From assembly GCA_002269645.1 (NCBI GenBank), contig NIVC01000038.1, positions 806,001-870,000 on the forward strand: a DNA stretch of 64,000 nt, written 5' to 3'. Below, piece after piece: positions 23,175-64,000 of the stretch. Source of the DNA: Macrostomum lignano. Its lineage: Eukaryota. The notes under the pieces were generated by a model that saw nothing but the letters and a program-made list of their open reading frames with translations, ran no database searches and had not been told where the DNA came from. Every line of letters starts with the position of its first letter. Positions within the stretch are counted from its first letter, which is position 1. Made by a program: the position numbers and the translations under genes.

Positions 23175-23395
23175 GTGAGACATGGAGTCGAGTTCCTGCC
23201 CGAGGATGGCAAAGAGCATCACATATTCAGGAATATGAATCAATCTCGACAATTGAATCATTTTTATTTATTTCTTACGCAAGACGATAACTGCTTAAGC
23301 TTCTTCTGCAGAAAATCCTTTATGAAATATTTCAAATGCAATTCTTCACTGAAACAAAGTACACGAGCATGGGTGACAACTTGCCCAGAACAGGG

Positions 23396-40043: not shown

Positions 40044-40120
40044 TTCTGAGAGATTATAACTAAAATACAATTGTACAAGTAGATTAATTAATCATTCAGT
40101 GCAGATGAACAGCTAACAGT

Positions 40121-41346: not shown

Positions 41347-41349
41347 ACT

Positions 41350-41360
41350 TGGTGGCAGCG
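41350..41360 (+). promoter_or_regulatory. Primer binding site, tRNA-Leu type
   Basis: TGGTGGCAGCG, 3 nt after the LTR end, is complementary to the ...CGCUGCCACCA 3' end of eukaryotic tRNA-Leu(AAG/TAG). Confidence 0.75.
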
Positions 41361-41406
41361 TTAAGGGATCAAGAAACCAGCGGAAAGCTAACTAGATCAG
41401 TGAAAA

Positions 41407-42351: not shown

Positions 42352-45300
42352 AATACAGAGGGTGGCATGAGAGGCCACGACCCTCTAGGAGAAATGAGTA
42401 CAAAATGAAGGCCTCTAATTGTAAATATAGTGTAGATAGTGAAGGTTGGCGAACTGTCCCAATGCGAAAAAGACACATAGGTGGTGTGCATGTAAATAAT
42501 GCGTTTGCACCAGCACCAATTTCCACTTATTCTGCGTCAGCACCTCATGCGTATGCACCAGCCGCATCATCATGTGTCAATCCTGCTTATGCTACTGAAA
42601 ATTTAGCACCAGTAGTAGAAAAAGAGTCCGAATCCGATTTTCGCCAACCAAAGCCTAAGAAAATAGTTAAGCAAAAGGTTTTTCCGAAACCAAAAGTTGA
42701 ATTAGTAAACCAGACAGGCTATGAAGCAATAGTAGTAGGCAGTATCGATAATCAAGAAGTAGACTTTCTAATAGACACAGGCGCTCAAAATAATTTTCTA
42801 AGTAGATCAGTTTGGTCAAAAGTATTCGAGCCGAGTCAGATTAGAGAAACAAGTAGGAGAGTTTCCACATTTGATGGAACTACAGTGAAATTAGAAGGAG
42901 AAGCGAGTACTTTAGTGCAGTTCGGAGATTTAGAATTAGAAATAGAATTCCTACTCTGCAGCCACGATTGTGACAACATACTAGGCATGGAATTCTTTAA
43001 AAATCGCTGTGAAAGCATTCAATTAGCAAAAGGCATGTTAATTTTAAAAGAGGGGACTTGTATTCCCATGCAGTATACTCATTTGCCAGTAAAAGTTTGC
43101 CGAGTATATACCCAGGAGAGGGCAGTAGTTCCGCCTAATAGCGCACTGCGAATCCCAGTGAGATTAGCCAAAAATTCAGAAGCCAATTATGGCACGCCAA
43201 TGACTATTGAGACTATTGGAAATAGTATTAGAACTAAGACAGAGACAGTAGAAATGAATCCGACTTTAGTTACTATGCGCGATGGCGTAGCCATAGTAGA
43301 AGTAGTGAATCAAAGCACGGTAGAAGTGAAATTGCCGAAATCAACCTTAGTAGGTTTAGCTAAGCCAATCAGGGCTAGAGAGCTCACTTACATGAATAAT
43401 GAAGTAGATCAAACCGTGCCGTCAGATCAGCCAATCACCGGACGTGTCAATCAAACGCAATCTACAAGTGAAACTTGGATTAGCGAAATAGATATTAGTG
43501 AAGATTTGACAGCCGAACAGAGAGATAGGGTGATTCAGCTCGTAAAAGAGCATAGAGAGGCCTTTTCTCAACATGATCTAGATATGGGCTTAACATCATT
43601 AGTCACGCATGAGATCTCGCTAAGGGATGAGACACCTGTTAGGATTCCGACTAGAAGGATTCCCCCTCATCTGCAGAAACAGGTAGATGCTCAGCTAGAT
43701 GACATGTTAGCTAAGAACTTAATTAGGCCATGCTATTCGACTTATTCAACACCTCTAGTGATCGTACCAAAGAAAGATGGTACTATTCGAATAGTTAGTG
43801 AATTTAGAGTGCTGAATTCACGAGTGAACTACTTTCCGTATCCGCTGCCAAATATTCAGGAGACATTTTCAAACTTAACAGGCAGTCAGTATTTTAGTAG
43901 CCTTGACCTGAATTCTGGTTATTGGCAAGTTCCGATAAAAGAGGAACACAAGTTTATGACTGCATTTTCAACATTAACAAGAGGTCAGTTTGAGTATCAA
44001 GTTATGGCTCAGGGCTTATCTAATGCCCCAGGTACTTTTCAAAGGCTTATGAATCTAGTGTTAGCAGGCATTCAGCATAAATATGCCATGTCATACATAG
44101 ATGATATAGTGACCTATTCTAAGCAGTTTGAAGATCATTTAGAACACCTTAGAGAGGTATTTAAAAGACTAATTAGTGCAGGACTAAAACTAAGAGCTAA
44201 AAAGTGCAACCTATTTCATAGCGAACTAAAATATTTAGGCCATGTAATCGGAAGAGAAGGAATTAGGACTGATGAAGCTAAGATAGAAGCCATTAGGAGC
44301 TGGCCCAAAGCCAAAGGATGTAAAAGAGCTAAGAAGTTTCTTAGGATTATGCAATTATTATAGTCGCTTTGTTAAGAATTATGCTGAGGCTGCACATCCG
44401 TTATTTCAACTAACTAGGAAAGGAGTGCAGAACTTTCAGGCAAAGTGGACTAGAGCTCATGATGAAGCATTTGAAGAGCTTAAGAAAAGAATGATGTCAA
44501 CAGAAGTGTTAGCCTATCCAGAGTTTGTAGACGATGAGAATGTTAGAATGGTCTTAGACACTGATGCTAGTGATGGACGCATAGGGGCCTGCCTAGGCCA
44601 AATCCAGTCAGATGGCATCGAGAGGCCTATAGCATATTTCAGTCGGGCTATGAAAGAAACAGAGAAGCGCTATCCAATAACTAGAAAAGAGTTGCTAGCG
44701 TTAGTAGATGCAATGAAGCATTTTAGATTTTATCTGATAGGAAAGCGATTTTTAGCGCGCACAGATCATAAGGCGATTTTATGGTTGTTAAGGCAAACAG
44801 AGGCCCAAGGGATTCTAGGACGTTGGGTGGAACGCTTAAATGAATTTCAATTCGATATTAAGCATAGAAGCGGTGCCAAACATTCCAACGCGGACAGTTT
44901 GTCCAGAAGACCGGCAGAAGTAGCTGAGGCAACCGAAATTGAGCAAGGCGTGAAAGCCTATGAAAGCGAATTTGAGCAAGGCGTGAAAGCCTATGACAGT
45001 GAGATTAAGCAAGGCGTGAAAGCCTATGAAAGTGAAATTAAGCAAGGCGTGAAAGCCTGTGAAAGTGAAAAGGGCGTGAAGCCGAGAGACAGCGTGAATG
45101 CTGCAGTAAGCGAGACAGTAGAAGAAGGAGAAAGAGAGATGCAGACTTCGCATCCCGAGGACTCAGAGTCTAGGATCAAGTCATTAGTCATTTCAGGAGT
45201 AGAAGGTGCGAAGGTAGAAGATGTGTCAGCACCGAGTTCAAGCTTAACGCAACAGAACAGAGACACTGAACCTGATCACAGAGAGAGTGAGATACCTAAA

Positions 45301-47217
45301 GTTACAAAATTACTAACTGACTACTTGCAAGTACCGTTGAAGAAGGAGCAAATTGTTAAAGCTCAGAGGGAAGACACAGCAATCTGCACACTAATAGAGT
45401 GGAAGCAAGAAAATCTGTCAGTCCCGCCAATTCAGAAAAATGAGTCAGTCGAACTGAAGCAGTTAAGACGAAAATATGAGAAAATGAAGTTAGAGAGAAA
45501 TCTGTTGACTATAGAAGAAGAAAGAATCTGGAAAATAATTTTGCCTAAATCTTTAGATAAGCTAGTGTTTAGCGATCTGCATGATAGCCCGCTAGCAGGA
45601 CATTTAGGTAGAGACAAAACAGTTCAGCGAGTTAGAGAGAGATTTTGGAGACCAGGCTTAGTAGCCGCAGTAGAAAAGCATGTGGCAGAATGCATCCCAT
45701 GCTTAGAGAGCAAAAGAGGCCATAAAGTGCAAGCTCCGATTCAGTCATTTCCAATTAGTGAGCCATTTCACCGATTACACATAGATGTGATAGGGCCAAT
45801 TTCAAAAATTAGCAAAAGAGGCCATCAGTATGTGTTGACAATAGTAGACAGCAATACTCGCTATCCGTTTGCATTTCCAATGCGCAATCAAAAAGCTGAC
45901 ACAATTATTAAGCTATTGCAAGAAAGAGTATTTAGTGAATATGGCCAATGCCAATGGATTCACACAGATAATGGCAAGGCATTCACTAGCAAACAATTTA
46001 GTGCATTCTGTGAGTTGTACAATGTGAAGCATACTTTCACAACTCCATATCACGCACAGAGCAATGGTTTAGTTGAGAGATTTAACAAGCAGGTCAAATC
46101 AATAGTCACATGCCTGATTGAGAAAGATCATAGCAATTGGGATCTATTAATTCCAGCAGCCTTAGTCGCAGTTAGAACTAGCGTTAATCAGACTACAGGC
46201 TATTCGCCGCATTTCTTATTGTTTGGCAGAGAGGCAGTTTTGCCCATAGACAGCGAACTTAGAGAGCCAAACCAATACGCTAACTATCCGACCTATGTAG
46301 CCGAACATGCCGAGAGATTAGAGAGTGCTAGAAAAATAGTTAAGGAAAAGTTTGAGAAAGTGCATGACAAAAGGCAGACAGACGCCGAGAATCAGAAAAA
46401 GCCAAAGGTTATTGAAGTAGGAAGCTTAGTGCTAATTAATAATCCACAACTTAACATTGACGAATCTAATAAGTTTCATAGGAAAAAGCGAGCCGCCTTT
46501 CGAGTGCTTAAGCAAATCTCAGAAGTAGTTTTTAAGATTCAGAAAGAAGAAGAAGGCGAGTTAGTAGGCAACAAGTTATTAGTACATAGGGATAACATGG
46601 CCCCAGTGCCAAACTCTGTGAAAGAGCCAATAGATAAGGGAAGCCAGGAGAGCGCTGAGACAGTAGAAATTATTAATAAGGAGAGCCAGACGAAAGCTAA
46701 GCATTCAAATAAAAGAAATCAGCAGGAGTTAGGACAATCAAGCAAGGGAAGCCACGCCAGAAAGAATAGACTAGAGGAACCAGTTATCGAATTAGAAGAA
46801 GAAAGCTCTGATGAGGAACAGCCGAAGTGGTTTTGCAAGATTCGTGAAAATGAACAATCGGTACATGAGAATGAATCAGAGTTGGAAGCGGAGTCAGAAG
46901 CTGAGATACAAAATAATATGCAACATGAGAGCCTAGTGGAAGAGGAGATGGAGAGGTCAGAGCGAGAGGGAGGAGAAGTAACGATCGATAACAGACGCGA
47001 AACAGAACAGGGGGAAGGAAAAGGCGCGCATGCGGGCCACACTGAGAATGGGGGTACGCCAGACAAAGAGGGTAATAAAACTAAACCATATAACACACGC
47101 AGCCGTACTAGGCCACCAGTCAAATGCCAGTGTTATCTAAAAAAGCTTGCTACTGTATGGAGACTATTAGAAAAATTAAACTTTTACCCAGCCAATAGGA
47201 ATTCAGTTGCGGTTTAA
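42342..47217 (+). CDS. pol: Pol polyprotein of Gypsy-1 (PR-RT-RNaseH-IN), entered by a -1 frameshift; one extra C at 44304-44306
   Basis: FLIDTGA (PR), FSSLDLNSGYWQ and YIDD (RT), LDTDASD (RH), HDSPLAGHLG..CIPC, IDVIGP, TDNG, NGLVER (IN). Removing one C restores WPKPKDVKELRSFLGLCNYY. Confidence 0.95.
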
Positions 47218-47390
47218 ATCAAGTGTTTATTGCGCAAGAGCCAATAAGATAATTTACAAAGATTAAAACAAGTTAGTTTGTTTAAATTAACTCAGCGGGG
47301 GGGAAGTCAATTTATATAAAAGGAGACACTTAATCAGGAAGGAGTCAGGATGGACTCTAAATCTAACAGTCAAAATTAAACTAGCTAGCT

Positions 47391-48455
47391 ATGGACGAAA
47401 TAGATCTGTTCGCAGACTTTGAAGATTTACTAGGAGATTTTACTATCCCAGTAGGGCAAGAGGCGGTAGTCGCCCAGCAGCCGCAGCAGCAAGAGGCGGT
47501 AGTCGCCCAGCAGCCGCAGCAGCAAGAGGCGGTAGTCGCCCAGCAGCCGCAGCAGCAAGAGGCGGTGGTCGCCCAGCAGCCGAAGCAGCAAGAGGCGGTA
47601 GTCGCCCAGCAGCCGCAGCAGCAAGAGGCGGTGGTCGCCCAGCAGCCGCAGCAGCAGCAGGCAGTAGTCACCCAGCAGTCAGAAACGATAGTTATTGAGG
47701 ATCAAGAAGCAGAGGCAGCCATCGACCAAGGAAGAAGCACCCGACTAAAGTCTGTGGTAATACGGCCGGCAGCACAGAAGGTGCCTGTGCCGCATAATCC
47801 GCAGGCTCGAGCGTCATTACTACGTGATCAAGCCAACAGACCAGTTGAAATAAGCGATAACATTCGCAAGCGACAGCCGCCAGGAGCGAACGCGACTCAG
47901 TTTATTACCATCAAACAGCCTAGACTCATTCTGCCGCGACAGCAGTCGAGACCGCAGCCAACAGTCATGTCATCGCAAAGTACGTCATCGGCGCAGCCTC
48001 AGGCCCCGGCCATTGGAAGGCAGGCAGCCTCAGCAGTGACACTAAGAAGCCACCGATCGCAGAACCCGATGGCCTTGGGGGCTAATTTCGCGGCCGTGCT
48101 GCAGGAAGTTCCGACTCATCTTCAAGAACCATACAAACAGGCCATCATGAAGATCAAGTCTTACCTGCTCAGCGTGGCTTTGCTCAGAATAGATGGGAGA
48201 GGCTTCTTGCCTCAAACCAAAGAGCCAGAAACGGCAATCGAGGAACTTCAGGCCAACTTTTCGCACGAGCAGTGTATAGCGGCCTGGCGAAAGGCTGTTA
48301 CGTACGCTCTACATGATCTCACCCAATCGGCTTGGTTTTACCAGCAGGCACAGCTGCGGTTCGAGGTCTGCTGGATGGCCGACAAGTTGGGATGGCCAGT
48401 CAAGAACAGCTTGCCATCAGAATTCGGTATGAATATAGGTAATAGGCGTAATTAA
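47391..48455 (+). CDS. Gypsy-1 accessory ORF3 (354 aa), unknown function, not env-like
   Basis: Intact ORF between pol and the 3' LTR: acidic N-terminus, about 6 x QEAVVAQQPQ (30-bp repeat), P/Q-rich linker and a ~130-aa apparently globular helical C-terminus; no signal peptide or TM. Confidence 0.85.
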   Translation: MDEIDLFADFEDLLGDFTIPVGQEAVVAQQPQQQEAVVAQQPQQQEAVVAQQPQQQEAVVAQQPKQQEAVVAQQPQQQEAVVAQQPQQQQAVVTQQSETIVIEDQEAEAAIDQGRSTRLKSVVIRPAAQKVPVPHNPQARASLLRDQANRPVEISDNIRKRQPPGANATQFITIKQPRLILPRQQSRPQPTVMSSQSTSSAQPQAPAIGRQAASAVTLRSHRSQNPMALGANFAAVLQEVPTHLQEPYKQAIMKIKSYLLSVALLRIDGRGFLPQTKEPETAIEELQANFSHEQCIAAWRKAVTYALHDLTQSAWFYQQAQLRFEVCWMADKLGWPVKNSLPSEFGMNIGNRRN

Positions 48456-48474
48456 CATTTTGCTGACACTCACG

Positions 48475-48725
48475 AATTGCTTAACCTGTACTTATTCATT
48501 TACTTAACCTGTGCTTATTCATTTGCTTAACCTGTGCTTATTCATTTACTTAACCTGTGCTTATTCATTTACTTAACCTGTGCTTATTCATTTGCTTAAC
48601 CTGTGCTTATTCATTTACTTAACCTGTGCTTATTCATTTACTTAACCTGTGCTTATTCATTTACTTAACCTGTGCTTATTCATTTACTTAACCTGTGCTT
48701 ATTCATTTGCTTAACCTGTACTTAT
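48475..48725. repeat. 23-bp tandem repeat (cttaacctgtgcttattcattta) in the Gypsy-1 3' UTR
   Basis: About 10 units. Confidence 0.95.
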
Positions 48726-48907
48726 CCATATTGTTTAATCGGTGCTATGATGCGATTTTCTTTTACTATTTAGCTCACTAATACTATTCACTTGCATAAT
48801 TTGTGAGTATCTGTATTGTTTTCGTATGCTACTTATAGTATTGTTCATGTAATTTGTATTTTTTCACACATATAATTAATTCAAAAATCCAATTAAGGGA
48901 AGCCAGT

Positions 48908-50133
48908 TGTAATAGGGTCGATCTTTTATTCTTACTAATAGTAGTTTTAAGCGGGTTTAATGAGCTATTTTTACTCAGCCAATCAGTAAATTTCCTTGTT
49001 TAAATCCCTTAATTATTTTGTTTTAACTAACTTCAGCCAATGGAGTTTAATAATTGTTATAATTTCGTAAGCTATTTTGTTATAATTAATTTCATCCAAT
49101 CAAATTAAGTTTTATCCTCTATATAAACGGAACGATTGACCAAGAATAAAATTAACTTGCTCTTCCGCGAATTTTCGCGAGCTCGCTCTCAACCGGAGAA
49201 GAAGCGTTTTTGCCATCCAAACCAAAACGTGAGTTAAAACTTGCGAGTCTTAGTTCTTTGTAGGAATAGGGAGAAATCAGAGGTCGTGGAGACCCAGAAC
49301 TAAGGATCTGAATAGGGAGAAATCAGAGGTCGTGGAGACCCAGAACTAGGGATCTGAATAGGGAGAAATCAGAGGTCGTGGAGACCCAGAACTAGGGATC
49401 TAAATAGGGAGAAATCAGAGGTCGTGGAGACCCAGAACTAAGGATCTGAATAGGGAGAAATCAGAGGTCGTGGAGACCCAGAACTAGGGATCTGAATAGG
49501 GAGAAATCAGAGGTCGTGGAGACCCAGAACTAGGGATCTGAATAGGGAGAAACCAGAGGTCGTGGAGACCCAGAACTAGGATCTAAATAGGGAGAAATCA
49601 GAGGTCGTGGAGACCCAGAACTAGGATCTAAATAGGGAGAAATCAGAGGTCGTGGAGACCCAGAACTAGGATCTAAATAGGGGGAAATCAGAGGTCGTGG
49701 AGACCCAAGACAGAGGTCTAAAATTAAGGAGAAATTTAAGGTCGTGCAGACTCTAAGGAAGCCGTACTGGCTAATAATAGGTATTAGGCGCTAGGAAATT
49801 AGGCATTAGAGGAGTGAATTAGCTACTGCTGGACACCCTTGATCCTCGGAAAACGCTAGACTTTCGGACTAAAATTAGGAAATTAGACAGTGTCTTACCG
49901 CTCGGGCACTACACGCTATCACAAGGTTTCCAAGAAATCGTGTGAAATTAGAGAAGGGTCATAGTTCAGAGGCAGCCAATACTACTAGAAGTAGACAGCT
50001 TAGGGACAGGAACCAGAAAGTCTGTGAAAGGCTCAGTAGCTTTAAGGTGGAATTGCAGTTAGAACGAGTACGTCTGCGACAACTTGGTGACATCTAGTGG
50101 GATCTAGAAGAAGGAGGAAACAAATCTGTAACA
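48908..50133 (+). repeat. 3' LTR of Gypsy-1
   Basis: Preceded by a purine tract (aagggaag); identical by eye to the 5' LTR; followed by the TSD. Confidence 0.97.
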
Positions 50134-51872
50134 CAGTCTAACATGACGGGTGAATAATTTTGGCTTTAATAATGAATAATGGGTGAATATAATGTCGGGT
50201 TGCTGCGCAAGTGTCTGGTTGAAAAAATACCTGTTGACAAAATAATGCGGCCGGTTGACGAAATGCCGGTTGACCAAATATCCTAGAACCGTTAATAGTA
50301 TTACCGCAAGCTAAAGTAGCTCCTTATGTGGTTTAGAGCTGCAACTTTTTGCGGTATTTCTTGTACTTTTGCGTTTTGCAATAGCTGTACGCTTATTTAG
50401 GCTAAACCGATGCTAAACCCCATATTTATATTGCTTTTATGCACATTCCTCAATTATTGATCGCACCACTTTCACTCTTTATTGATCGCCTCACCCCATA
50501 TTACGCTCACTCGTGTATGCCTTGCTTTCTCTGAACTCATAGAAATATCGAACCATACCCAAATATATCGCTCAAATACTTTTCCGTTTCCATCGTTTCT
50601 ATCATAGTAGCATTATAGTTTGTTTTTTATCTGTAGTTATATTAGAGAAAACTATGTTTAATTGCTAAAGTAATTTTGTTTTAAATGAATTTACTAAATT
50701 AGCTAAAAGGTAATTATGTATTTGTTATATTATAATAATTTTTTTAAGAAACGAACTTTCCAGAAAGTTCCTTATAAATTCGAAAAAAAATTAAATTATA
50801 CAGTTCGTGCGCGGGCACTTACGTCACATGTAATAACCCATGTTGTTGGACTCACATCTAAGGCTAAGTAAAGGCATTCAGAGTCCATACGCAGCCAGGT
50901 TTTTAATAATACAATACTCATTTATCTAAATGTGTTCCGTGTCGCTAATCACTATATATCACAATTCACAGTGCTTCTGTTTTTATTGCATTGCATTGTG
51001 ATTTAATTGATCTCTTTTTTGACAATTTTTAAGCCGACTAATTTTCTATAGTCAATATATTGGTTTTTAGTCAATATTTTATTATACGTTTTTATTTCAA
51101 AAGTAGTATATTTTGTCTAATTTTTACTCTTTTCTGTCTCAGTTCCTGTTTTTTAAAACAATAAATAGGCTAGAGATAGGGATAGGCCTAGAATAGAACT
51201 TTTGCACACAAATGAAAGTATTCCAAAACTACAAGAGAAAAAGTTTTATTTTATTTTTCCACTTTTCAGCAAACAAATAATTAGTATTCTGCAAATTTAT
51301 GCATACCTTCAGGCTTCAGCTTCAGTTACTATTTATATCTTTAAGAATCAAAACTGTCTATATAGTATATTTGTCAATGTACAATTTTGATTGCTATAGA
51401 CTCCCAAACCAAACTCCTCAACTAAATTACACCAAATTTTGTTCTTACCCTAAACTCACTACAAAGATAGTCTTAGGCTAGGCCTACCTTAAATTTTCTA
51501 AAATCTAAGTCTAGTTACTCAAACAATAAAAAAAGCAGTTTTTTTCACTAAATCCTACATAGTGCCATTCTACTTTTACTAATCCTCTTAAATTTGAGAT
51601 AGACAATCTTCAACTATGTTATGTTGAAAATTGTTATATTATTTTATTGGCTAAGATGGCTATGTTAGGCCTAGCTATAATAGTTTGGTAAAAAATTTGA
51701 ACCATTTCCCTCTATATAGGCAAACTCTATCAATTTAATAGTAAGTAGCAATTTGCAATCCAAGGCAATCTAGCATGGTTTGTAAAAGCAAAATATTTTT
51801 GAAAATGCAATACAAACCTAATTTAATCATAACAAAATTTTAATATTAAGTTTCATCTAAAGGTAACTGTAA

Positions 51873-52551
51873 TCCATAGTCAGGAAGGTGGCAAGTGCAC
51901 ATGGGAATCAATTTATGGAAAAATCCTTGGTGCATGCCAATGTACGCCAATTTTTTAAAACCCTTAACATGACGTTTCTGTTGCATGCCAAAAATCTTAA
52001 ATACCAAAAATCATGAACGCCTCATGTATATGTGATTTGAATATTAACCGTATTAGATACTATTTTTAAATAAATTTTCTACTTACATTAAACAAAGTTT
52101 ATATATAAAAAGGAAATTTGCTACAAAGAACATAGTGAGTATCAAAAACTTTTTCTTCAAATTTCAAGAAACAAATAAACTAAAAGTCTACAAGAGTCAC
52201 AAAATAAGAGCGTTTAAAAGTTATTGGATATTTTAATTTTAATGTTGGCTGTAGAGTGTAGGCCTGGCTGTAGCCTCAACTAGTTGGTTTAATCAATATT
52301 CAAATTCAATTGTTCACGTTTAACTTTATATATTGTATATATATAGTGTATACATCTATATCTGACTTGTTGATATACTGTCAGTTTGTAATTGCACGCC
52401 AAGGTTACATGCCAAGTAAAAAACTTGTACGCTGAAAATTTAGGTGTGGCTTGAGACCCCTATTTGCACGCCAACTTTGCACGCCAAAATTTTAGCGTGG
52501 CTTGTGCACGCGGGAAAATTCCCGCATGCAGGCCACCTTCCTGAGTATGGA
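51873..52551. mobile_element. MITE with 20-bp TIRs
   Basis: tccata(g/c)tcaggaaggtggc at both ends in inverted orientation; repeated gca(c/t)gccaa subterminal motifs; no clear TSD. Confidence 0.75.
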
Positions 52552-52555
52552 CTAT

Positions 52556-53463
52556 TGAAGTACTTCTCCTTCTCGGGTTCTCGAAGATGTTCCTAGAAAA
52601 TAGAACCCGCTGCTCCTGAAGAAGCTAGATAGCACCGCAGTACTACCTATCGATTTGCCTGAAAATGAACCTAAAGCGTTGCCGTTACTTGGTAGGGTTG
52701 CTGCCACCTTGGTGTGCGGACTCGACGCGTCGACAGAGTTGTCTATCCGTCACCTGAAAGAAAATTAACAAAGTCGCTCGGAGCAAAGGCAAATCTGAAA
52801 AATGTCTCGACAGTCGGTCGTCTTAGTAAATGCTGCTCGAACCTGAAAACCTGTAAAACCTGAAATGAGAGAGGAGAGCTCGGAGGCAGTGGCAGCTCCA
52901 ATCTAGGAAGCTCCCGAACGCGGCTCACGATCTGGAGAAAAACGGCTCTCAGATACTCCGTATTTATAGCCGAGCGGACCCCAAAAGTCACGTGAGTTTC
53001 ATGCGGTGAGCGCGTGAAACTTCCTTATTTGGGCATTAAAATCATGCGAACGACGCGTGATTCAAGGCCAACTTCCAAATAAGGCAACCCTGTCACGCAG
53101 CAGTGGCGTGACTCAAGGTCAGTGGCCACGCACAGCGTGCGTGCACAGTCACGTGCTTATTCTGTGCTAAAAATAGAACATGGGCGGATGAGTCATCCTG
53201 TTTACTCCCTCTAGGCAGCCATTATACTCCGCGCAGGTGATGAGTCATCCTGCAACGCCTCCTCAGCGCGAGTGGGAAGACATTGAGTGTGGCTGCCCGC
53301 GCCCGCTCAGGCGATGAGTCATCGGGCAGTAAACACTTAGGCCCAGCACAGGGTAACTCTCTCACTAGCTCAGGTGGACTGAGATACTGTGCAGCGGATC
53401 ACAGCACTCTTAAGGGAAGCTAGTGAATGCTGCTGAATAGCCAGTTAGCAGCCAGTCACTACA
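52556..53463 (-). repeat. 3' LTR of Gypsy-2 (~908 bp)
   Basis: PPT ggacggggagag (53475-53464) immediately followed by TGTAGT; TATA ctataaata at ~52965; probable end ...ACTTCA at 52556 (imperfect inverted terminus). The second LTR is not in the window, so the right boundary is inferred. Confidence 0.75.
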
Positions 53464-53883
53464 CTCTCCCCGTCCAAATTAAATTGCAGCAGCGGAACAA
53501 TGATTCAATTTTATTTGAAAACAAAAAACCGGCTCTAATAAGGCCACTGCATAGTAAGTATTTATTAGCTACAAAAGAAAAGTAAAATTTATTGCGCGCC
53601 AGTCAAAAAGATGGAAAACAAGGCCACACGAATTGCATACGGTATTGCGGATTAACCAGTGATAGTTTTTAGAGATTAGATTGATTAGCTGAGAGATGCA
53701 TTAAATTTTGAGATTAATTTGAAATGGAGATGAATTCCTGATTATTGCGTGTCAGCCTAATTGTAAAGATGTAAATGTTGTCATGTAATTTTAATTTTTG
53801 TTAATAACGAATGAATTTTTCAAAGTCCGTTGGCACGTCGGCGGTTTGACCTAGGAAGAAAAGGGCCTTTAAGATGGCCAATT

Positions 53884-54167
53884 CTAGCGTAGTTGGATGC
53901 GGCGGTTGAGTTGGTAGGGCGGCGATGGTGCGGCGGGCCACTTCCGAGATAGCCTGATTGTGGTCAGGTGGCTCACCTGTGTTGAGGCGTCAGCGTGCTG
54001 CGGCCTGGCCTTGATAGCGGCATTGATCGCTTCCACTAGCTCCGTTTTTGAAAACAACCTAGGCGGCGACGGGGCAGGCGACGGATGGCGAAAACGCGGT
54101 CTCGGCGGAGTGGGCGGCGTGGGGATATCATCTAAATTGATGGTATCTGGCTGCGGCGGCGGCGTCA
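53884..54167 (-). CDS. C-terminal half of the Gypsy-2 accessory ORF
   Basis: Joins in frame to 59256-58620 once the Helitron is removed (..YLGV|MTPPPQ..). Confidence 0.8.
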
Positions 54168-54769
54168 TCCTATATACTAAAAATGAGTTGTCTGTGGGTA
54201 GGTAGGTAGGTAGGTATGCGATAGATTTCAGAAAAAATGGCTCAACCGATTTTCTTCAAACTTGCACCATTCGATCAGAAATTTTCCTGGGACGGTACAT
54301 GCATCTTGGCTAAGAAATTGCTCAATTTTAAAGGGATTAAATATTCGAAAAACATGCTTTTTTGCAAAGGTCAAGCAGCTCTTTCGACCTGAAATGCATT
54401 GTAAAAATGCTAGAGAAAAAACTGACTGACTGAATTTCAATTCTGATAAAGATTGCATCACAACAAGTTGAAAACAGTGCCGAAGAAATGCACACACGAC
54501 TTGATTTAAATTGCGTAACCAATATTGCTAACTCAAATTGAGACTGATACTGGCTGACTGAGAAATTGATTATGTCATAACTTTTTACCCCAATTGACTT
54601 GCTGTAAGAATTGAATTATAAGTGCCACAATTCATGTACTCCAATTGAAAAGAGATAGCCTAGATACGAACAGACTGGACTGCCGACATAGCGACCTGGG
54701 TTCGAATCTTGGTAGTGCAAAATAATTTTTTTATTAAAACACCTTAAAAACACAACAAAACTGCTAAAC

Positions 54770-57700
54770 ATAAAAGAAGCGCAATGTCAAATATAAAAGA
54801 GCCACCATGCCAAACATAAAAGTGCCAACATGTCGAACACAGAAGAGACACCATGTCAAACACAAAAGAGCCACCATGTCAATCATAAAAGAGCCACCAT
54901 GTCGAACATAAAAGAGCCACCATGTAAATCATAAAAGAGCCACCATTTCAAACATAAAAGAGCCACCATTTCGAACATTAAAGAGCCACCATTTCAAATA
55001 TTAAAGAGCCACCATGTCGAACATAAAAGAGCCACTATTTTCGAACATTAAAAAGCGACCATTCGAACATTAAAGAGCGACCATGTCAAACATAAAAGAG
55101 CCAACATGTCAGACATTAAAAAGCCACCGTATCAAATATAAAAGAGTTACCATGTAGAACAAAAAAGAGCCACCATTTTGAACATTAAAGAGCCACCATG
55201 TCAAACATTAAAGAGCCACCATGTCAAACATTAAAGAGCCACCATGTCAAACATTTAAGAGCCGCCATGTCAAACATTTAAGAGCCACCATGTCAAACCT
55301 AAAACAGCCACCATGTCAAACCTAAAACAGCCACCATGTCGAACATAAAAGAGCTACCATGTTAAACATTAAAGAGCCACCATTTCGAACATTAAAGAGC
55401 CACCATGTCAAACATTAAAGAGCCACCATGTCAAACATTAAAGAGCCACCATGTAAAACAAAATAGCCACCATTTCGAACATTAAAGAGCCACCATTTCA
55501 AATATTAAAGAGCCACTATTTTGAACATTAAAGAGCCACCATGTCAAACATTAAAGAGCCACCATGTCAAACCTAAAACAGCCACCATGTCGAACATTAA
55601 AGAGCTATCATGTCAAACATTAAAGAGCCACCATTTCGAACACTTAAGAGCCACAATGTAGAATATTAAAGAGCTACCATGTCAAACATTAAAGAGCCAC
55701 CATGTAAAACAATAAAGAGCCACCATTTGAAACATTAAAGAGCCACCATTTCAAACATGTAAGAGCCACAATGTCAAACCTAAAAGAGCCACCATGTCAA
55801 ACCTAAAACAGCCACCATGTCGAACATAAAAGAGCTACCATGTCAAACATTAAAGAGCCACCATTTCGAACATTAAAGAGCCACCATGTCAAACATTAAA
55901 GAGCCACCATGTCAAACATTAAAGAGCCACCATGTCAAACATTTAAGAGCCGCCATGTCAAACATTACAGAGCCACCATGTCAAACCTAAAACAGCCACC
56001 ATGTCAAACCTAAAACAGCCACCATGTCGAACATAAAAGAGCTACCATGTTAAACATTAAAGAGCCACCATTTCGAACATTAAAGAGCCACCATGTTGAA
56101 CATTAAAGAGCCACCATGTCAAACACAAAAGAGCCACCATGTCAAACCTAAAACAGCCACCATGTCGAACATAAAAGAGCTACCATGTCGAACATTAAAG
56201 AGCCACCATTTCGAACACTTAAGAGCCACAATGTAGAATATTAAAGAGCCACCATGTCAAACATTAAAGAGCCACCATGTCGAACATCAAAGAGCCACCA
56301 TGTCGAACATTAAAGAGCCAACATGTCGAACATTAAAGAGCCACCATGTCAAACATATATGTGACTCCATGTCAAACATATACGTGACTACATGTCAAAC
56401 ATATACGTGACTCCATGTCAAACATAAAAGAGCCACCATGTCAAACATATACGTGACTACATGTCAAACATATACGTGACTCCATGTCAAACATAAAAGA
56501 GCCACCATGTAAAACATATACTTATGACTCTTTGTCGAACATAAAGAGCCACCATGTAAAGCATTTACGTGACTCCATGCCAAATATATACGTGACTCCA
56601 TGTCAAACACATACGTGACTCCATGTCAAACATTAAAGAGCCACCATGTCATATAGTAAGGAGCAACCATGTCAAACATTAAAGAGCCACCAAGTAAAAA
56701 ATTAAGAGCCACTATGTCAAACATTAAAGAGCCACCATGTCAAACATTAAAGAGCCACCATATCGAACACTAAAGAGCCACCATGTCAAACATGTATGTG
56801 ACTCCATGTCAAATATATACGTGACTCCATGTCACACATAAAAGAGCCACCATGTCAAACATTAAAGAGCCACTATGTCAAACATTAAAGAGCCACTATG
56901 TCAAACATTAAAGAGCCACCATGTCAAACATAAAAGAGCCACCATGTCAAACATTAAAGAGCCACTATGACAAACATTAAAGAGCCACTATGTCAAACAT
57001 TAAAGAGCCACCATGTCAAACATTAAAGAGCCACCATGTCAAACATTAAAGAGCCACTATGTCAAACATTAAAGAGCCACCATGTCAAACATAAAAGAGC
57101 CACCATGTCAAACATTAAAGAGCCACTATGTCAAACATTAAAGAGCCACTATGTCAAACATTAAAGAGCCACCATGTCACACATTAAAGAGCCACCATGT
57201 AAAGCATATATGTGACTCCATGCCAAATATATACATGACTCCATGTCTAACACATACGTGACTCCATGTCAAACATTAAAGAGCCACCCTGTCGAACGTT
57301 AAAGAGCCACCCTGTCGAACGTTAAAGAGCCACAATGTAGAACATTAAAGAGCCACCATTTCGAACATTAAAGAGCCATCATGTCAAACATTAAAGAGCC
57401 ACCATGTTGAACATTAAAGAGCCACCATGTCAAATATTAAAGAGCCACAATGTAGAAAATTAAAGAGCCACAATGTAGAATATTAATGAACCACCATGTC
57501 AAACATTAAAAAGCCACCATGTCAAACATTAAAGAGCAACAATGTAGAAAATTAAAGAGCCACAATGCCAAGCATTAAAGAGCCACCATGTCGAACATTA
57601 AAAAGCCACCATGTCAAACAATAAATAGCCACCATGTTGAACATTAAAGAGCCACCATGTCAAACATTAAAGAGCCACCCTGTCGAACATTAAAGAGCTA

Positions 57701-58110
57701 CCATTTCGAACATTAAAGAGCCACCATGTTGAACATTAAAGAGCCACCATGTCAAACAGTAAAGAGCCACCATGTCGAACAATAAAGCGCCACCATGTCG
57801 AACGTTAAAGAGCCACCATGTCAAACATTAAAGAGCCACCATGTCGAACATTAACGAGCCACGATGTCAAACATAAATGAGCTTCCAAGTTAGACATAGA
57901 AGAGCCACCATGTGAAACATATATGTGACTCCATGTCAAACATTAAAGAGCCACCGCTTCTAACATTAAGGAGCCACCATGACAAACATAAAACTGGCAC
58001 GATGTCAAACATTAAAGAGCCACCATGTAGAACATTAAAGAGTCACCATGCCAAACATTAAAAAGCCACCAATTCAAAAATAAAATAGCCACCATTTCAA
58101 ACACAGGAGA
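54770..58110. repeat. 23-bp minisatellite (aaagagccaccatgtcaaacatt), ~140 degenerate units with a variant subfamily (atatacgtgactccatgtcaaac)
   Basis: Directly visible inside the Helitron. Confidence 0.97.
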
Positions 58111-58204
58111 GACATTTTCAAACGTAATAAGAAGCGTCATGCCAATCATAATGCAGCCCCTAGAAAGCTAAGGAAATGTTGCACTATATACTTTTTGTCT
58201 GGTG

Positions 58205-58475
58205 GATGCTTGCTATTTAAGGATAGATACTTGCTATCAATTGGGTGCTTGCTATCTGGGGGTTCTTTCTATCTGGGGTGCTTGCTATATGAGGGATGCT
58301 TGCTATCTGGGGGTGCTTGCTATATGAGGGATGCTTGCTATCTGGGGGTGCTTGCTATATGAGGGATGCTTGCTATCTGGGGGTGCTTGCTATCTGGGGG
58401 TGCTTGCTATCTGGGGGTGCTTGCTATCTGGGGGTGCTTGCTATCTGGGGGGGGGGAGGGGGATGCTTGCTGTCT
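58205..58475. repeat. ~17-bp tandem repeat (gggggtgcttgctatct)
   Basis: About 14 units near the Helitron 3' end. Confidence 0.9.
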
Positions 58476-58619
58476 TGGGATGTTTTCTTTTTGCATTGTG
58501 CTTCATTTGAGCAGTTTTTCTGTTGTCTTTGTGAAGACTCTATTTGGCTGTCTTTTTGTTACTTGTAGAGAACAGAAGTTCTATCCAGATGTCCCCCATC
58601 GGGGGGCGAAGATTGCTAG

Positions 58620-59256
58620 TCACACCTAAATATTGAGCCGGAGGTGGCGAGTGCGGTTGCGGCGGAGTGCGCAGGATATCCATCTGCGGATCGAATAGAG
58701 CCGGTGGTTGGGCGTCTGGGGCGTCCTGTTCTCTTGGAGACAGCAGGTCCTGCAGCGGCGGCAGCAAGTCCTCGCCAGGCTCTTCTTGCAAGGAGCTGAC
58801 CGGACTCCCGAACAGCTGGAGCACCATGTCATCTTGGCGCTGGTGATCGGGCAAGCTCTGCGCCGGAGGCTCTGGTAGCGGCTGCGCCGGTGGCGATCCT
58901 GGTCGGGATGGCGAGATCAGTTTGTCAGCTGCCGGCAGCCGGGCGTTAGCTTGGATTGCGCGCGGCGGGTCTAGCCGGAGGCGGATGGCGGCTGCTTGCT
59001 CCCTGGCAATCGCGAGTGGATCGCCTTGCTGAGTTGGCTGCAACGGCGCCAGCCTGCGCACTTCCACCCGGGCCACTTGACGTGGCCGCTCGTCCCAGCG
59101 ACTTCGGCGCCTGCGGGCCGGGTCGTGCGCTGGTGTTGGAATGGTTTGAATACGGCCGGCAGATAAAGTGGGCCGCGTCCGCTTACGCCCGCTGGCCGGC
59201 GAGGGCGTCCTGGACGGCTCTCGGTCGCGCTTCTTCCGGTTTTCCTTGCCGGTCAT
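58620..59256 (-). CDS. N-terminal part of the Gypsy-2 accessory ORF (basic, then Pro/acidic-rich); ~306 aa when reconstructed
   Basis: ATG 173 nt after the pol stop; RKKRDR, RKRTR and RRRRSRWDE motifs; no signal peptide or TM. Confidence 0.8.
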
Positions 59257-59429
59257 CTTTTAGTTGTTTAATGTTGCTTTTCAGCGCTGGAACAGGCACG
59301 AGGCCGGCGGAAAAAGTTGATTAACCGGCTCAAGTAGGATTTTGACTTTGTTTTAAGAACCAAGCGGTCAGGTTCCTTTCGAGCCCTAACTGGCCTGTCA
59401 TTGACGGCCCATTCGACTTGACTGGTTGA

Positions 59430-62400
59430 TTACAAATTGGCCGACAAATCATGACTATTATTTGGCAAATTGGCCGACAAAACATGACTATTACATTGAT
59501 TATTCCTATCAGAGTCTAAGTTAATCCTATCGCTATTTCTACTTTCAGGTCGCCTCTGCGTTTCAACTGTAGGAGCGGTTGGAGCTTCGCAAGAATCATA
59601 CGGCAGTGACTCAAGCTCAACTCTGTTCTCCATAACTTCAGGTTCGTGGATGCAGACTTCAGTTGGACGCGCGCTTGGCTGAGCGGCTGATCGGAGTCGC
59701 CAGCGATAGGCGGGTCTCGTGTCCAGGTCGTCATCTTCTTCGTCGGAGTCCTCAGAGATGGCGGGGAGTGTCGCAGCTCCGGCGTCAGCCTGTCGAACTC
59801 GGCGATGCTTCTTCGGTTCAGCTGGCCCTTCGAGATCTGCAATTGGATAATCTGAAGTGGGTACAAGGAGGAGGTTCCGGCGATGAACTACCATTTCGTC
59901 CGGTCGTTCTCGAGGGTGTCGAACCTTCCGTCGAATCTTGTAGACGACTTCTCCTTTGCCTTCCACCACTTCATACAACGATCTCCTTGGCCTGTGGAAA
60001 TTCGCTGCTTCGTCTTCGTGTAGGACCGGATTGTTCAAGAAGACGAGATCTCCCGGCTGTAGCTTCTTAGCTGCTGGTCGGTTCTCGTAGTGCTCGTCTC
60101 GCGCTTGCTGATGCAGGCCTAGCCGTTCCTTTGCGAGGTCCGTGGCGTGCTTGAGGCGTTGCTGAAACTCTGCGACGTAATCAGGCAGGTTGGAATACTC
60201 CGGGAGTAGCTTTAATGAATTGTCTAGAGGCATCCTGTATTCTCGGCCATAGACTAAGAAGTAAGGCGTATAGCCTGTGACTGGATGAACGCTGGATCGA
60301 AGAGCAATCATGCACGCTGGCAGAAATGTGTCCCAATCGCGATGATCGTGCTCGAGGAGACATGTCAGAATGCTCTTGATCTGCTTGTTCAGATTTTCTA
60401 CCAGTCCGTTGGATGCTGGGTTGTACGGCGTCGTTGTCGTGTGCCTGATCGCGTAGAGATCACAGAACTTCTTGAAGGCGTTTCCTGTGAAGTTCGTGCC
60501 TTGATCCGTGTGAATCCAAGCTGAAACTCCGTATTCTGGAATAAATCGGTCCTGTAACAATCGGATAACGGTCTTAGCTTTCTGATTTCTCATCGGATAA
60601 GCTATCGGAAACTTTGATGTCGCACAGCAGAGTGTCAGGATGTACCGATGACCTCCTTTGGACGGTTGCGCAATCGGTCCGATCACATCCATGTGAAGTC
60701 TTCCTAAAACTTCGCAGACTGGAAAACTCTGCACTGGCACTTGCTGTTTTCGTCGTGACTTGCTCTCTAGGCAGGTTCGGCATTTGCTGACGTAGGTCTC
60801 AGTGGCTCGGACTAGACCTGTTCGCCAGAATCTTTCGCGCACACGTTGGGCGGTCTTTCGCTGTCCTTGGTGTCCTGCTAAAGGCGAATTGTGGAGCTCG
60901 TTAAAAACTTCGTCGTCGTCGAGTGCTTCTGGTAAGACAATCTTCGGTGGAGTGTCTTTTTCCTTCATGTTGATCATGAGTAGATCTCGCTCGAGGAATA
61001 GTAACTCGTAGTATCCTAGCAGATTCCGTTGCTCTCTGCTAAGTCGTAACGCTGGTTTCGGTTGATTCTCCTTGATCAACTTGTAAACGTAGCCAATAGC
61101 TGGGTCATCCTGTTGAGCTTTGATGAGCTTGTCGCGCGGCAACGGCGGCTTCAGATGATCCGTAAGCAATGCTCGGCAGCGCGGCAGACTTTGAGAAGTT
61201 GCGAGCTGGGGAGATGCTTCAGCTGTACGTACTCTGTTCTCCTCGTATGCAGACTTCGTCACCTCTGCATAGGAACGCGTCAGTTTCGGCGTAGGACGAA
61301 GGCGCTTCATGGCGCAAGACATATCGTCCACGCGTTGATAATGGGTGGTCGGCTGCAGGCTCATGGAAGAGCAACGAGACGGCTCGACCTGCTGAGTCTG
61401 TCGGCTCATGGAAGAGCAGCGGGACTCCTCAGCGGTAAATTTTTGACCGAGATCTGAGCAGTGGCGCTCGACTGGGAGGGCTGCTGGAGCGGTGGCCTCC
61501 GGATCTTCGTCCAAGTCAGTCTCCAAACTCTGTAGGTAGACCTGATGGCTGTCGTTGGAGAGGGCTGAGGGTACAGTGGCCTCTTGAACTTCATCCAGAT
61601 TGGTCTCCTTGAAGTGACGGCGAGCGTGGGTGGCTCGGCAGAGGGCTGCTGGTGCGGTGGCCTCTGTGTCTTCATCCAAGCTTACTGTCTCCTGGCGTTG
61701 GCGCGAGCAGTGGAGAACTCGGCAGAGGGCTGCAGGTGCGGTGGCCTCTGGTTCGTTGTCCAAGTCGGTCTCTGCCTCTGGATCGCGATTGTGGGTCTTG
61801 ATTGAGAGGGCTGCTGGTGCGGTGGCCTCTGAATCGATGCCCGGATCAATTTCCTTAATGCGGCGACACTCACGCTGAGTGGTGTCTCCTGTCTCCTCGC
61901 GGTGGCAAGCCAGGACAGCGTCGACGTCTTGGAGTACTCCGTAATCGCATTCTAACGGAGGCGTGTCCGGGCGTCTTGATAGCGCGTCGGCGTTGGTGTG
62001 GTCAGTACCCTTGCGATGGGAGATGGTGAACTGAAATTCGCAGATCCTCTGGACCCATCGACCTAGAATCCCTGTAGATTCAGTCTGACGTAACAGCCAG
62101 AGCAAGGCCTTATGGTCACTTCTTACTTCAAACTTCTTTCCTATTAAGTATTCTCGAAAGTGTCGCATGGCATCGACGATAGCCAGTAGCTCCCGCTTGG
62201 TGACCGTGTAGCGAACTTCCGGGTCACGGAGCTTGCGACTGAAAAAGGCGATCGGTCGTTCTATTCTATCGGATTGCAGTTGTCCTAGACATGCACCGAT
62301 TCGGGTGTCGGATGCGTCGGTATCCAGGATGAACTTGACCTTCGGATCCTCATTGAACTCTGGGAGGGCGAGTACTTCGGTTGAGCATAGCTTGCTCTTC

Positions 62401-63992: not shown

Positions 63993-64000
63993 AGCGACTC

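Follow-up and report, generated by a model that had tools for sequence, protein, structure and literature searches.

The position 3' of pol in a clade of Ty3/Gypsy elements of the flatworm Macrostomum lignano was found to be occupied by a conserved gene, here called ORF3, that is under purifying selection. This slot is exchangeable within pol lineages, since near-identical backbones bear ORF3s that are saturated at synonymous sites or cannot be aligned, and it is not exchangeable between the two elements described below, E1 and E2. Deep ORF3 alleles probably recombine between near-identical backbones, and the gene probably encodes a nuclear regulator countering silencing; the chances of this composite reading were judged to be evenly balanced.

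The window, a stretch of 64,000 nt (assembly GCA_002269645.1, contig NIVC01000038.1, positions 806,001-870,000, forward strand), carries E1 and E2, two complete young Ty3/Gypsy insertions, each with a third ORF in sense orientation 3' of pol. Both possess TG..CA LTR pairs, a primer-binding site (PBS), a polypurine tract, a short target duplication and gag followed by pol, with Pfam domains PR, RT, RH and IN in the Ty3/Gypsy order. Their amino acid identity reached 60% in RT-RH and 50% in IN, which bears out the relatedness claimed in the preliminary description, and the gag of E1 was 44% identical to that of the E2 family.

E1 lies on the forward strand. Its 5' LTR (40121..41346; 1,226 bp, TG..CA, with a 46-bp array inside) and 3' LTR (48908..50133) are 100% identical and are bordered by a 4-bp target duplication (40117-40120 and 50134-50137). 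The PBS was assigned from the sequence at 41350..41360; an older PBS-like copy occurs at 41298, within the 5' LTR. The gag gene (41407..42351, 314 aa) gave weak Retrotrans_gag and Ty3_capsid matches. It is followed by pol (42228..47217, PR-RT-RH-IN), whose frame is broken within 44287-44363 and is unbroken in a sibling copy, L078. A predicted internal promoter (47191..47323), with CCAAT boxes at about 47191 and 47240 and a TATA box at about 47313, near -78 relative to the ATG, precedes an intact ORF3 of 354 aa (47391..48455). Downstream are a tandem array of a 23-bp unit in the 3' UTR (48480..48729) and the polypurine tract (48896..48907).

E2 is on the reverse strand. Its 3' LTR (52556..53463, 908 bp) is 99.7% identical to the 5' LTR, which is located outside the window (L061, 1607-2514), and is adjoined by a 4-bp target duplication (52552-52555) and a polypurine tract (53464-53475). 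The pol gene (59430..64000) extends past the window, with gag and PR in L061, and stops about 55 codons earlier than in its relatives. ORF3 is broken: a 3' part (53804..54167, in two pieces with one stop) encodes a Pro-rich linker and the helical domain, and a 5' part (58620..59256) encodes a basic, NLS-like start, an Arg-rich RRRRSRW motif and an acidic stretch. The 5' frame continues to a stop at 58540, so that the ORF of the window (58540-59256) amounts to only 238 aa because a 4,452-bp insertion (54168-58619) splits the gene; unbroken ORF3s of E2 relatives have 370-378 aa. Of the non-membrane post-pol ORFs of 300-350 aa initially proposed for both elements, the position after pol and the lack of a membrane segment stood, and the length did not hold for E2.

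The paired CCAAT boxes seen at the pol end are present in both elements, but the E2 pair (59474/59441) results from a 33-bp duplication (59432..59499, reverse strand) inside the coding tail of pol, and the relative C100 has a single copy of this unit. Repeats in the RH-IN linker had been regarded as independent expansions accompanying the third ORFs. Their units do differ, 33 bp x4.1 in E1 (44935..45070, forward strand) and 84 bp x2.3 in E2 (61559..61750, reverse strand), but they vary among siblings, none being scored in L078; they thus represent a general linker trait unlinked to the cassette.

The E1 ORF3 product comprises an acidic amphipathic N-terminus, a Gln-rich repeat (47456-47678), a basic disordered middle and a helical C-terminal domain, modelled as five helices (48060..48452, forward strand; pLDDT 86) with no significant fold match. 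The earlier view of these ORFs as largely low-complexity was not upheld, as both E1 and E2 proved to have a conserved helical domain of 100-125 aa at the C-terminus. It was conserved in 141 of 150 scored matches for E1, at identities down to 23%, and in 40 of 70 for E2, and the domains of groups B and C were homologous (probability 95%, E 4e-8). Residues 1-30 carried a net charge of -7 to -11 in all 29 E1-type ORF3s, and their C-terminal 125 residues a charge of +1 to +9; unlike this acidic type, the E2-type N-terminus is basic. No membrane segment was detected, the highest 19-residue hydropathy being 1.02 in E1, 0.27-1.11 in the 29 E1-type proteins and 1.70 in two intact E2 relatives, where the maximum falls inside the predicted helical domain. 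Assignment to env-bearing Gypsy elements (errantivirus-like, Tor) was rejected on the charged N-termini, low hydropathy and lack of a Pfam match.

Whether both ORF3 types share an origin is less clear-cut than the claim of mutual unrelatedness implied. Direct profile comparison gave P=0.39 and enlarged profiles P=0.004-0.02 across 101 collinear columns; remote homology of the two types is possible. An N-terminal motif common to pool 2 and group C was only suggestive (profile P 0.004, HMM search E 0.8-17).

Pfam returned no family for the ORF3s of the window nor for any of 10 further ORF3 proteins, and members of A1 reached E 0.02-0.24 only, which is noise. This and the sense orientation argue against an identity with the known bdelloid GDSL/DEDDy ORFs or the TRP28 additional ORFs (aORFs). 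Foldseek searches with the E1 domain model yielded no match with E <0.001; its best structural match was the Gle1 CTD (Z 7.6, rmsd 3.6 A over 126 residues), and the weak E2 domain model attained a top Z of 5.3. PDB sequence searches gave no match below E 0.016, and ESM Atlas scores for the E1 and F domains were 0.78 or less. Word-indexed protein searches, which covered longer proteins only, found one protein each among 8,000 scored for queries A4 and A1; none of 10 ORF3 proteins, read from the predicted ATG, was found by exact look-up, and the searches gave no named match to the domains outside Macrostomum. A predicted two-copy complex of the E1 domain scored 0.01.

A pattern of the nuclear export signal (NES) type, defined by a regular expression, occurred in 15 of 26 E1-type N-termini versus 3.1 in shuffles, counts which, like those for promoter motifs, are non-independent as the 26 elements represent about five lineages. 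An acidic amphipathic activation helix would yield a similar pattern. An Arg-rich motif is present in E2-type ORF3s.

Selection on ORF3, which the preliminary description had suggested testing, was purifying. Omega was 0.11-0.39 for all 11 E1-type pairs with a dS of 0.10-0.19, and 0.13-0.29 for 14 E2-type pairs with a dS of 0.88-0.97; three young E2-type pairs had values of 0.20, 0.53 and 0.66. In four pairs ORF3 dN was 0.09-0.13 with saturated dS.

The third ORFs are neither sporadic nor unconserved: the slot is filled clade-wide in the genome. When ORF3 families were mapped onto an RT-RH tree, a quick tree with unnamed or other-species outgroups, the E1 type was confined to the E1 pol clade and the E2 type to the E2/B/C clade, which speaks against an ORF exchange between E1 and E2. 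The Gmr1/Osvaldo cluster comprises M. lignano families (PMC12801592); six gene ids sought in five supplements of that report were not found there.

In groups E1, E2 and E, ORF3 stands apart from pol and has promoter signals of its own. In groups B and C it shares the pol frame, and at nine loci (L131, L132, L135, L136, L137, L139, L141, L143 and L170) its domain is joined in frame to the C-terminal end of pol, a position that chromodomains occupy in other Gypsy elements. The fusions in groups B and C point toward a particle or integrase accessory, such as an integration-site tether or nuclear-entry adaptor whose alleles use different host partners or genomic niches, and against the regulator model. 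Such a protein could act in trans, which fits the loss of ORF3 from some pol-less copies. However, the typical ORF3 start is kept inside the fused frame of group C, the fold searches of ORF3 domains found no chromatin reader, and a pol-less lineage, which itself has no need of an integrase helper, carries the domain at 39 of 48 places; together with the separate ORFs, these observations make an accessory of this kind unlikely. The latter count is from gag-led sampling, with the domain absent at 9 places; ORF3-led sampling had given 12/12, and the idea that every pol-less copy retains ORF3 was abandoned after the recount. C554, a pol-less and recently mobile element with identical LTRs, and the tandem array C1833 have no ORF3, and in group D there is no more than a 144-aa ORF that lacks the domain; ORF3 is therefore not needed in cis.

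Mosaic structures were found in five separate recombining pools, in which gag-pol backbones 93-100% identical carried ORF3s saturated at synonymous sites or, in one pool, of an unalignable class. They substantiate the swappable slot that had been proposed, for which the E1/E2 contrast itself is no evidence. Among 24 E1-type elements (276 pairs), RT-RH dS was below 0.5 in 62 pairs, 59 of which had an ORF3 pS of at least 0.61; as loci were chosen for ORF3 diversity, these counts prove the existence of mosaics and not their frequency. The E1 pool pair formed by the window element and L163 had a pS of 0.03 in IN and 0.84 in ORF3, and pairs from pools B and C had 0.05 and 0.08 in RT-RH with 0.72 and 0.80 in ORF3, respectively; the E2 pool displayed the same pattern of diverged ORF3s on near-identical backbones. 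L150 and L167 had an RT-RH pS of 0.09, yet their ORF3 classes, E and F, could not be aligned (P 0.15-0.47). L076 is a reciprocal recombinant. In pool 2, dS climbed from RT through IN to ORF3, as expected near a balanced locus.

The edges of divergence coincided almost exactly with ATG and stop in several pairs. L157 and L158 were 97-100% identical in gag-pol, mostly 93-100% in the flanks and 61-73% inside ORF3, with edges about 20 nt upstream of the ATG and at the stop codon. It could be argued that ORF3 is a dispensable passenger of old lineages that merely gained new backbones, or that mosaics are artefacts of a repeat-rich assembly, in which these copies show many single-base breaks; ORF3 was also lost in group D and C554. 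Purifying selection, LTR pairs 96-100% identical in 22/22 elements, target duplications of 4 bp matching in 17/22 and codon-clean divergence beginning and ending at ORF edges all contradict this explanation, and a neutral gene would sweep along with its backbone. Already disfavoured, it appears highly improbable.

Synonymous divergence among E1-type ORF3s was bimodal: of 1,378 pairs, 34 had pS <0.3, a single one 0.3-0.6 and 1,343 at least 0.6. This distribution, and the divergent island coinciding with the predicted ORF3 transcript in several pairs, could reflect selection on the RNA itself, the mRNA evading host small RNAs so that synonymous sites are pushed apart while the protein is kept. 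The host possesses a piRNA pathway (PMC4604429). Anti-conservation and over-dispersion of synonymous differences were nevertheless not observed: four-fold sites matched at 0.32 versus 0.26 expected, and differences were not over-dispersed in 9/9 allele pairs, which kept perfect runs of 14-29 nt. Besides, the L157/L158 UTRs are identical and gag-pol shows no comparable escape, leaving this explanation little probability.

Diverged alleles were observed on near-identical LTRs and promoters in L157/L158, L089/L164, L091/L093 and the entire E2 family, which argues against a lock-and-key pairing with the element's own LTR; a search for U3 tracking ORF3 found no correlation of identities across 50 pairs (rho 0.14, P 0.34). 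The many alleles, 16-85% identical and sharply bounded at ATG and stop, are reminiscent of balanced recognition loci, and full and pol-less elements have alleles in common. ORF3 might accordingly set element-versus-element or element-versus-cell specificity (copy-number control, exclusion, poison-antidote), rare alleles gaining. Such a role is rather improbable: ORF3s of the E2 family recombine between their N-terminal and C-terminal halves (C19 against C722, and the copy in the window against C19), so that the gene need not stay whole in that family, neither a toxin-like fold nor a second start codon was seen, and copies without ORF3 persist.

A predicted TATA/CCAAT internal promoter upstream of ORF3 is supported by motif enrichment and breakpoint positions. 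TATA motifs occurred at -125..-60 from the ATG in 13 of 26 elements (1.1 in shuffles) and CCAAT upstream of ORF3 in 12 (1.5 in shuffles). Of 23 qualifying 5' change points, 13 fell at -115..-3 from the ATG and 10 at -180 to -612. Crossovers could also cluster through conserved promoter homology alone. Contigs from four runs, whose RNA status is a guess, covered 30 of 30 bins of E1 in X1, 28 in X2, 12 in X5 and 13 in X6.

According to the favoured regulator model, a separate ORF3 mRNA would be made from this promoter and alleles would change backbones by recombination during reverse transcription. Template switches would occur at or near the promoter on one side and, on the other, at the stop codon, in the 3' UTR or at the R end; the 5' switch might be imposed where a co-packaged ORF3 mRNA has its 5' end. 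Negative frequency-dependent selection would keep ORF3 alleles while backbones sweep. Action could be Tas-, VANC- or Rev-like, the acidic amphipathic N-helix serving in activation (Tas has an acidic activation segment) or in export, and the basic helical domain binding nucleic acid or a partner. Our best guess from these sequence patterns is a nuclear accessory regulator or anti-silencer with alleles under frequency-dependent selection; the host-interaction or counter-defence role initially suggested would fit the selection pattern. A bolder version, in which a multi-allelic counter-defence cassette of a new helical superfamily is under long-term balancing selection, hops between shared gag-pol backbones via subgenomic mRNA and switches off flatworm silencing, is possible but doubtful.

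Several known systems offer partial parallels. Foamy virus Tas/Bet (PMC13220597) are encoded 3' of pol, like ORF3, and have a regulatory role and an internal promoter, both of which are predicted here, but ORF3 elements lack env, have no sequence or fold match and share one LTR among alleles. VANC of the VANDAL elements is likewise an element-encoded accessory protein diverging fast between related elements, and both systems have tandem repeats in non-coding parts; however, VANDALs are plant DNA transposons in which VANC specificity tracks target repeats (PMC5735166), whereas ORF3 alleles change while LTRs stay the same, and no domain match was found. CERV of C. elegans Cer1 and Rev/Rec-type export factors (PMC10309623) provide a non-env accessory protein in an animal LTR retrotransposon, which the NES-type pattern of E1-type and the Arg-rich motif of E2-type ORF3s resemble, but CERV is made from spliced mRNA and ORF3 is a 3' ORF with promoter signals. 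LTR elements of bdelloid rotifers also have a variable third ORF at the env position, and a non-autonomous family without the gag C-terminus and most of pol retains it; these ORFs are env-like, GDSL esterases or DEDDy nucleases with neutral variation within families (PMC5408684), whereas the M. lignano ORF3 contains no known domain, evolves under purifying selection and occurs as deep alleles on backbones that are shared. Oikopleura Tor3b/4b resemble the present elements in their Gypsy-type third gene and internal promoter, which is predicted here, though that gene encodes a membrane glycoprotein (PMC4402516) and ORF3 lacks any membrane segment. The aORFs of plants, for instance Retand TRP28 (PMC7264820, PMC11963269), and sORF2 of the Drosophila MDG1 group (10.1101/2025.03.14.642691) are likewise conserved extra ORFs, of accessory or unknown function, in non-env LTR elements that have tandem repeats 3' of pol, ahead of the 3' LTR; but TRP28 ORFs run antisense, and sORF2 encodes a short protein with a transmembrane segment. 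Neither shares a Pfam match with ORF3, and their abstracts do not describe such allele exchange.

Extra ORFs in LTR retrotransposons are known, and element-encoded counter-defence is documented for few. The gene is flagged here by its selection pattern, namely a conserved protein, alleles older than their carrier backbones and divergence that can end at ORF edges, and the mosaic pattern recurs in five pools across several hundred genomic matches. Families delimited by RT identity can conceal many functionally distinct lineages. Should ORF3 be an anti-silencer or export factor, it would give direct access to the arms race between transposon and host, in a worm that is open to transgenesis and RNAi and whose stem cells depend on piRNAs.

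Finally, the insertion in E2 ORF3 (54168..58619, forward strand) is Helitron-like. Non-autonomous Helitrons have a TC start, a CTRR end after a hairpin and an A|T target without duplication. Judged on these features, the insertion conforms, with a TC start, a hairpin followed by a CTAG end and a position between A and T. The hairpin forms, yet its stability was not above that of shuffles (z -0.42). The insertion contains a 145-copy 23-bp satellite, and its end is of a high-copy type: all 40 scored matches, out of 1,727 candidates, stopped within query bases 181-184, either at the insertion end or slightly beyond it.

Judging from their sequences, both elements of the window belong to Ty3/Gypsy: Pfam recognized PR, RT, RH and IN in Ty3/Gypsy order, and their identity levels (60% over RT-RH, 50% over IN) agreed with the relatedness proposed in the preliminary description. 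E1 was complete (40121-50133, + strand), with two 1,226-bp LTRs that were 100% identical, a 4-bp target duplication and, in order, PBS, gag, pol, the third ORF (ORF3), a 23-bp array and PPT; its pol frame was broken within 44287-44363 (+). E2 (- strand) extended from 52556 past the window edge; its two LTRs, the 5' one of which lay in the adjoining DNA (L061), shared 99.7% identity, and a 4-bp target duplication was present. The expected ORF3 length of 300-350 aa was approached by E1 (354 aa, 47391-48455, +), whereas ORF3 of E2 was split by an insertion of 4,452 bp (54168-58619) whose ends were of Helitron type, which alone accounts for its length of 238 aa in the window; the 3' part, itself broken, lay at about 53804-54167 (-), and unbroken relatives had 370-378 aa. 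Of the genomic matches to the right end of this insertion, the 40 that were scored all terminated at or just beyond the same end. The Helitron-like element was high-copy and contained a 23-bp satellite in 145 copies as well as a 17/35-bp array. Stacked, older PBS-like copies preceded the true PBS in the U5 ends of LTRs (window 41298 and 50085; L098, L160, L161, L162), some elements having several, which gives the impression of an LTR end that shifted inwards time and again.

Pfam held no family for either ORF3, and by the same Pfam comparison ORF3 resembled none of the ORF3 and aORF types described so far that were tested; by its sequence it is not an env. When the same genome assembly was searched with the C-terminal domain of the E1 product, 141 of 150 scored candidates matched, many of them within open frames 280-500 aa long, and with a divergent member as query all 150 scored candidates (of 236) matched. 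Twenty-two aligned sequences, 20-59% identical to E1, shared invariant Asp, Pro, Glu, Leu and two Trp residues. Omega was 0.11-0.39 for 11 young E1-type pairs and 0.13-0.29 for 14 E2-type pairs near dS 0.9, with values of 0.20, 0.53 and 0.66 for three young E2-type pairs. ORF3 is thus a real, conserved gene under purifying selection; instead of being sporadic or unconserved, it was conserved and clade-wide, and it had no Pfam match to a known aORF family. Among 1.84 billion representatives, HMMER matched the domain to six proteins: four named M. lignano proteins, one chimeric gene model and one present only in Logan contigs. Two ORF3-type proteins found only in Logan contigs (P0003, P0007) had diverged from the genomic copies seen and possibly come from a related species. 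The literature searched gave no account of this ORF3 or of its allele pattern, although a 2020 classification cited in PMC8629357 could mention such ORFs; in the main text of PMC12801592, on M. lignano families, the word ORF was absent.

In E1-type proteins an acidic N-terminus was followed by a basic central part rich in Pro, Gln and Ala and by a helical C-terminal part, also basic. Their first 30 residues were acidic and amphipathic (charge -7 to -11 in 29/29), and none of the 29 examined contained a membrane segment, in line with the non-membrane product first described. Of 26 N-termini, 15 contained an NES-type pattern, compared with 3.1 in shuffled sequences (at most 8 in 2,000 shuffles); an acidic activation helix would, however, give a similar picture. 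E2-type N-termini displayed an NLS-like run of basic residues together with an Arg-rich motif that closes with Trp, which we take to resemble Rev ARM and ULM motifs. The E1 domain was modelled as five helices (pLDDT 86); the E2 model was weak (pLDDT 57), with a similar helix pattern, and fold searches with these two models, the latter weak, yielded no significant match. That ORF3 might be a particle or integration factor is unlikely, though the idea keeps some weight.

Further groups gathered by RH-led genome searches showed that the slot is occupied throughout the clade. Groups B and C carried a domain homologous to that of E2 (probability 95%, E 4e-8), mostly in frame with pol; group D held a 144-aa ORF lacking the domain, and group E a separate ORF3 about 1.3 kb past pol. 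Nine B/C loci had no stop between pol and ORF3 (L131, L132, L135-L137, L139, L141, L143, L170), the longest pol frame reaching 2,215 aa, and group C retained the ORF3 start codon within the fused frame. A quick RT-RH tree of 51 genomic rows, restricted to unbroken RT-RH, and 28 outside proteins placed all genomic rows on one side of a single branch (SH-aLRT 100, but flagged for long branches). E1-type ORF3 mapped to a single pol clade (support 99) and E2-type ORF3 was confined to the E2/B/C/D clade; ORF exchange between E1 and E2 was therefore ruled out, and what survived of the suggested exchange was that inside pol lineages. Direct comparison of the E1 and E2 domain profiles gave P 0.39, or 0.12 with sister groups added. 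Larger profiles gave P 0.004-0.02 over 101 collinear columns, a score matched by 0-1 of 60 column shuffles, 0/60 seven-column block shuffles and, for fourteen-column blocks, 2/60 (global) and 5/60 (local); the gag control gave P 0.076. On these values, the chances that the two domains are remote homologues appear about evenly balanced.

Among 276 pairs of 24 E1-type elements, loci picked for ORF3 diversity and forming non-independent pairs, 62 had RT-RH dS below 0.5, and in 59 of these ORF3 pS was 0.61-0.85 and protein identity 38-85%. Low pol dS reflects recent common ancestry since pol synonymous sites vary freely, L078 and L080 combining 96% pol protein identity with dS 2.1. Between loci L157 and L158 identity was 97-100% over gag-pol and for the most part 93-100% over promoter, 3' UTR and LTR, versus 61-73% inside ORF3, divergence beginning about 20 nt upstream of the ATG and ending at the stop; L091/L093, L089/L164 and L153/L162 behaved much alike. 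Further pairs had 3' UTR and U3 moving with ORF3 while R-U5 stayed closer to the backbone, and L076 joined IN from one lineage to ORF3 from another. The same mosaic pattern was found in E1's own pool (a recombining set on a shared backbone), in B, in C and in E2: compared with the E2-family copy C19, identity was mostly 91-100% in pol and mostly 90-100% in LTR, with ORF3 down to 57-85%, and E2-family ORF3s showed crossovers between N- and C-halves. A swappable slot in the strict sense was encountered in pool E, where L150 and L167 (RT-RH pS 0.09, LTR 90-100%) bore unalignable ORF3 classes, E and F; each of the seven pool-E elements examined held one class or the other, and class F returned 111 matches among 123 scored. 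That ORF3 is a passenger or an artefact is highly improbable; LTR pairs were 96-100% identical in 22/22 elements and target duplications matched in 17/22, which argues against artefact and makes assembly chimeras unlikely. An exchangeable ORF3 under purifying selection is very probable as a structural statement. Head-to-tail tandem arrays with common LTRs were also seen (L158, L163, L206-L207).

Upstream of 26 E1-type ORF3s, derived from about five lineages, a TATA box lay at -125 to -60 in 13 (1.1 in shuffles, maximum 3) and a CCAAT box occurred in 12 (1.5 in shuffles), from which we infer an internal promoter. Among 378 pairs of 28 elements, 23 combined high pol-side with low ORF-side identity, their change points falling at -115 to -3 (13 pairs), -292 to -180 (six) and -612 to -527 (four). 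An ORF3 mRNA running from the predicted promoter to R, if co-packaged, would be reverse-transcribed from R to its 5' end, forcing a template switch there, a route that fits pairs with the promoter-to-U3 stretch replaced; the data agree equally with ordinary template switching where conserved homology ends. As precedents, Tor env is made from an internal promoter (PMC4402516) and noroviruses recombine at the ORF1/ORF2 overlap (PMC3371806). Stand-alone ORF3-type proteins are present in the M. lignano annotation, and their identifiers presumably come from the published annotation, described as RNA-seq guided in PMC5730564. One of these proteins, P0001, has its start 5' of the promoter predicted here and may therefore reflect full-length RNA.

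Were the ORF3 versions equivalent, a single one would be expected to hitchhike whenever a backbone swept. Allele survival, the dS gradient of pool 2 (increasing from RT through IN to ORF3) and bimodal divergence (1,378 pairs; pS low in 34, middle in 1, saturated in 1,343) point instead to balancing or frequency-dependent selection. Escape from small RNAs is an improbable cause, tests for selection on RNA sequence being negative. Element-versus-element specificity seems rather improbable. A private ORF3-LTR pairing is an unlikely driver because U3 identity did not track ORF3 identity. To the reading that we favor we would give an even chance: the ORF3 product would act in the nucleus as an accessory regulator, sustaining element expression against host control, and host counter-selection would maintain its alleles.

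Full elements also shared ORF3 alleles with an old lineage that lacks pol and has a short, diverged gag; it may represent a parasite or an interfering Gag. Its members (L097, L098, L160-L162, L184-L190, L205-L207, L213-L215; e.g. L160:4069-4659, -) measured about 5-7 kb, with LTR pairs 94-100% identical; their gag had some 197-213 aa, the first 100 residues being some 40% identical to E1 gag, and a hydrophobic stretch in place of the second half of the capsid region. A gag-led recount (53 matches, merged into 48 places) found a match from the domain search 2-6 kb downstream in 39/48 places, some broken, whereas the sequences of the other nine, examined one by one, lacked it; ORF3 is therefore usually kept and not required in cis. 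One of the nine, a recent copy with identical LTRs (L205:807-6581), had an Ala-coding tandem repeat replacing the slot from about the promoter on.

Elsewhere, the window contained an intronless kindlin/FERM gene (789-aa frame, 28142-30511, -), ASIC/ENaC-family channel pieces with an inverted partial copy (21649-23402, +; 24224-24829, -), a 333-aa frame that lacked Pfam matches and included a stretch resembling a signal peptide (35163-36164, +), an intronless DXD glycosyltransferase (38071-39276, +) and a 273-bp unit repeated 12.5 times without a mismatch (1260-4665), with TATC microsatellites on both sides.
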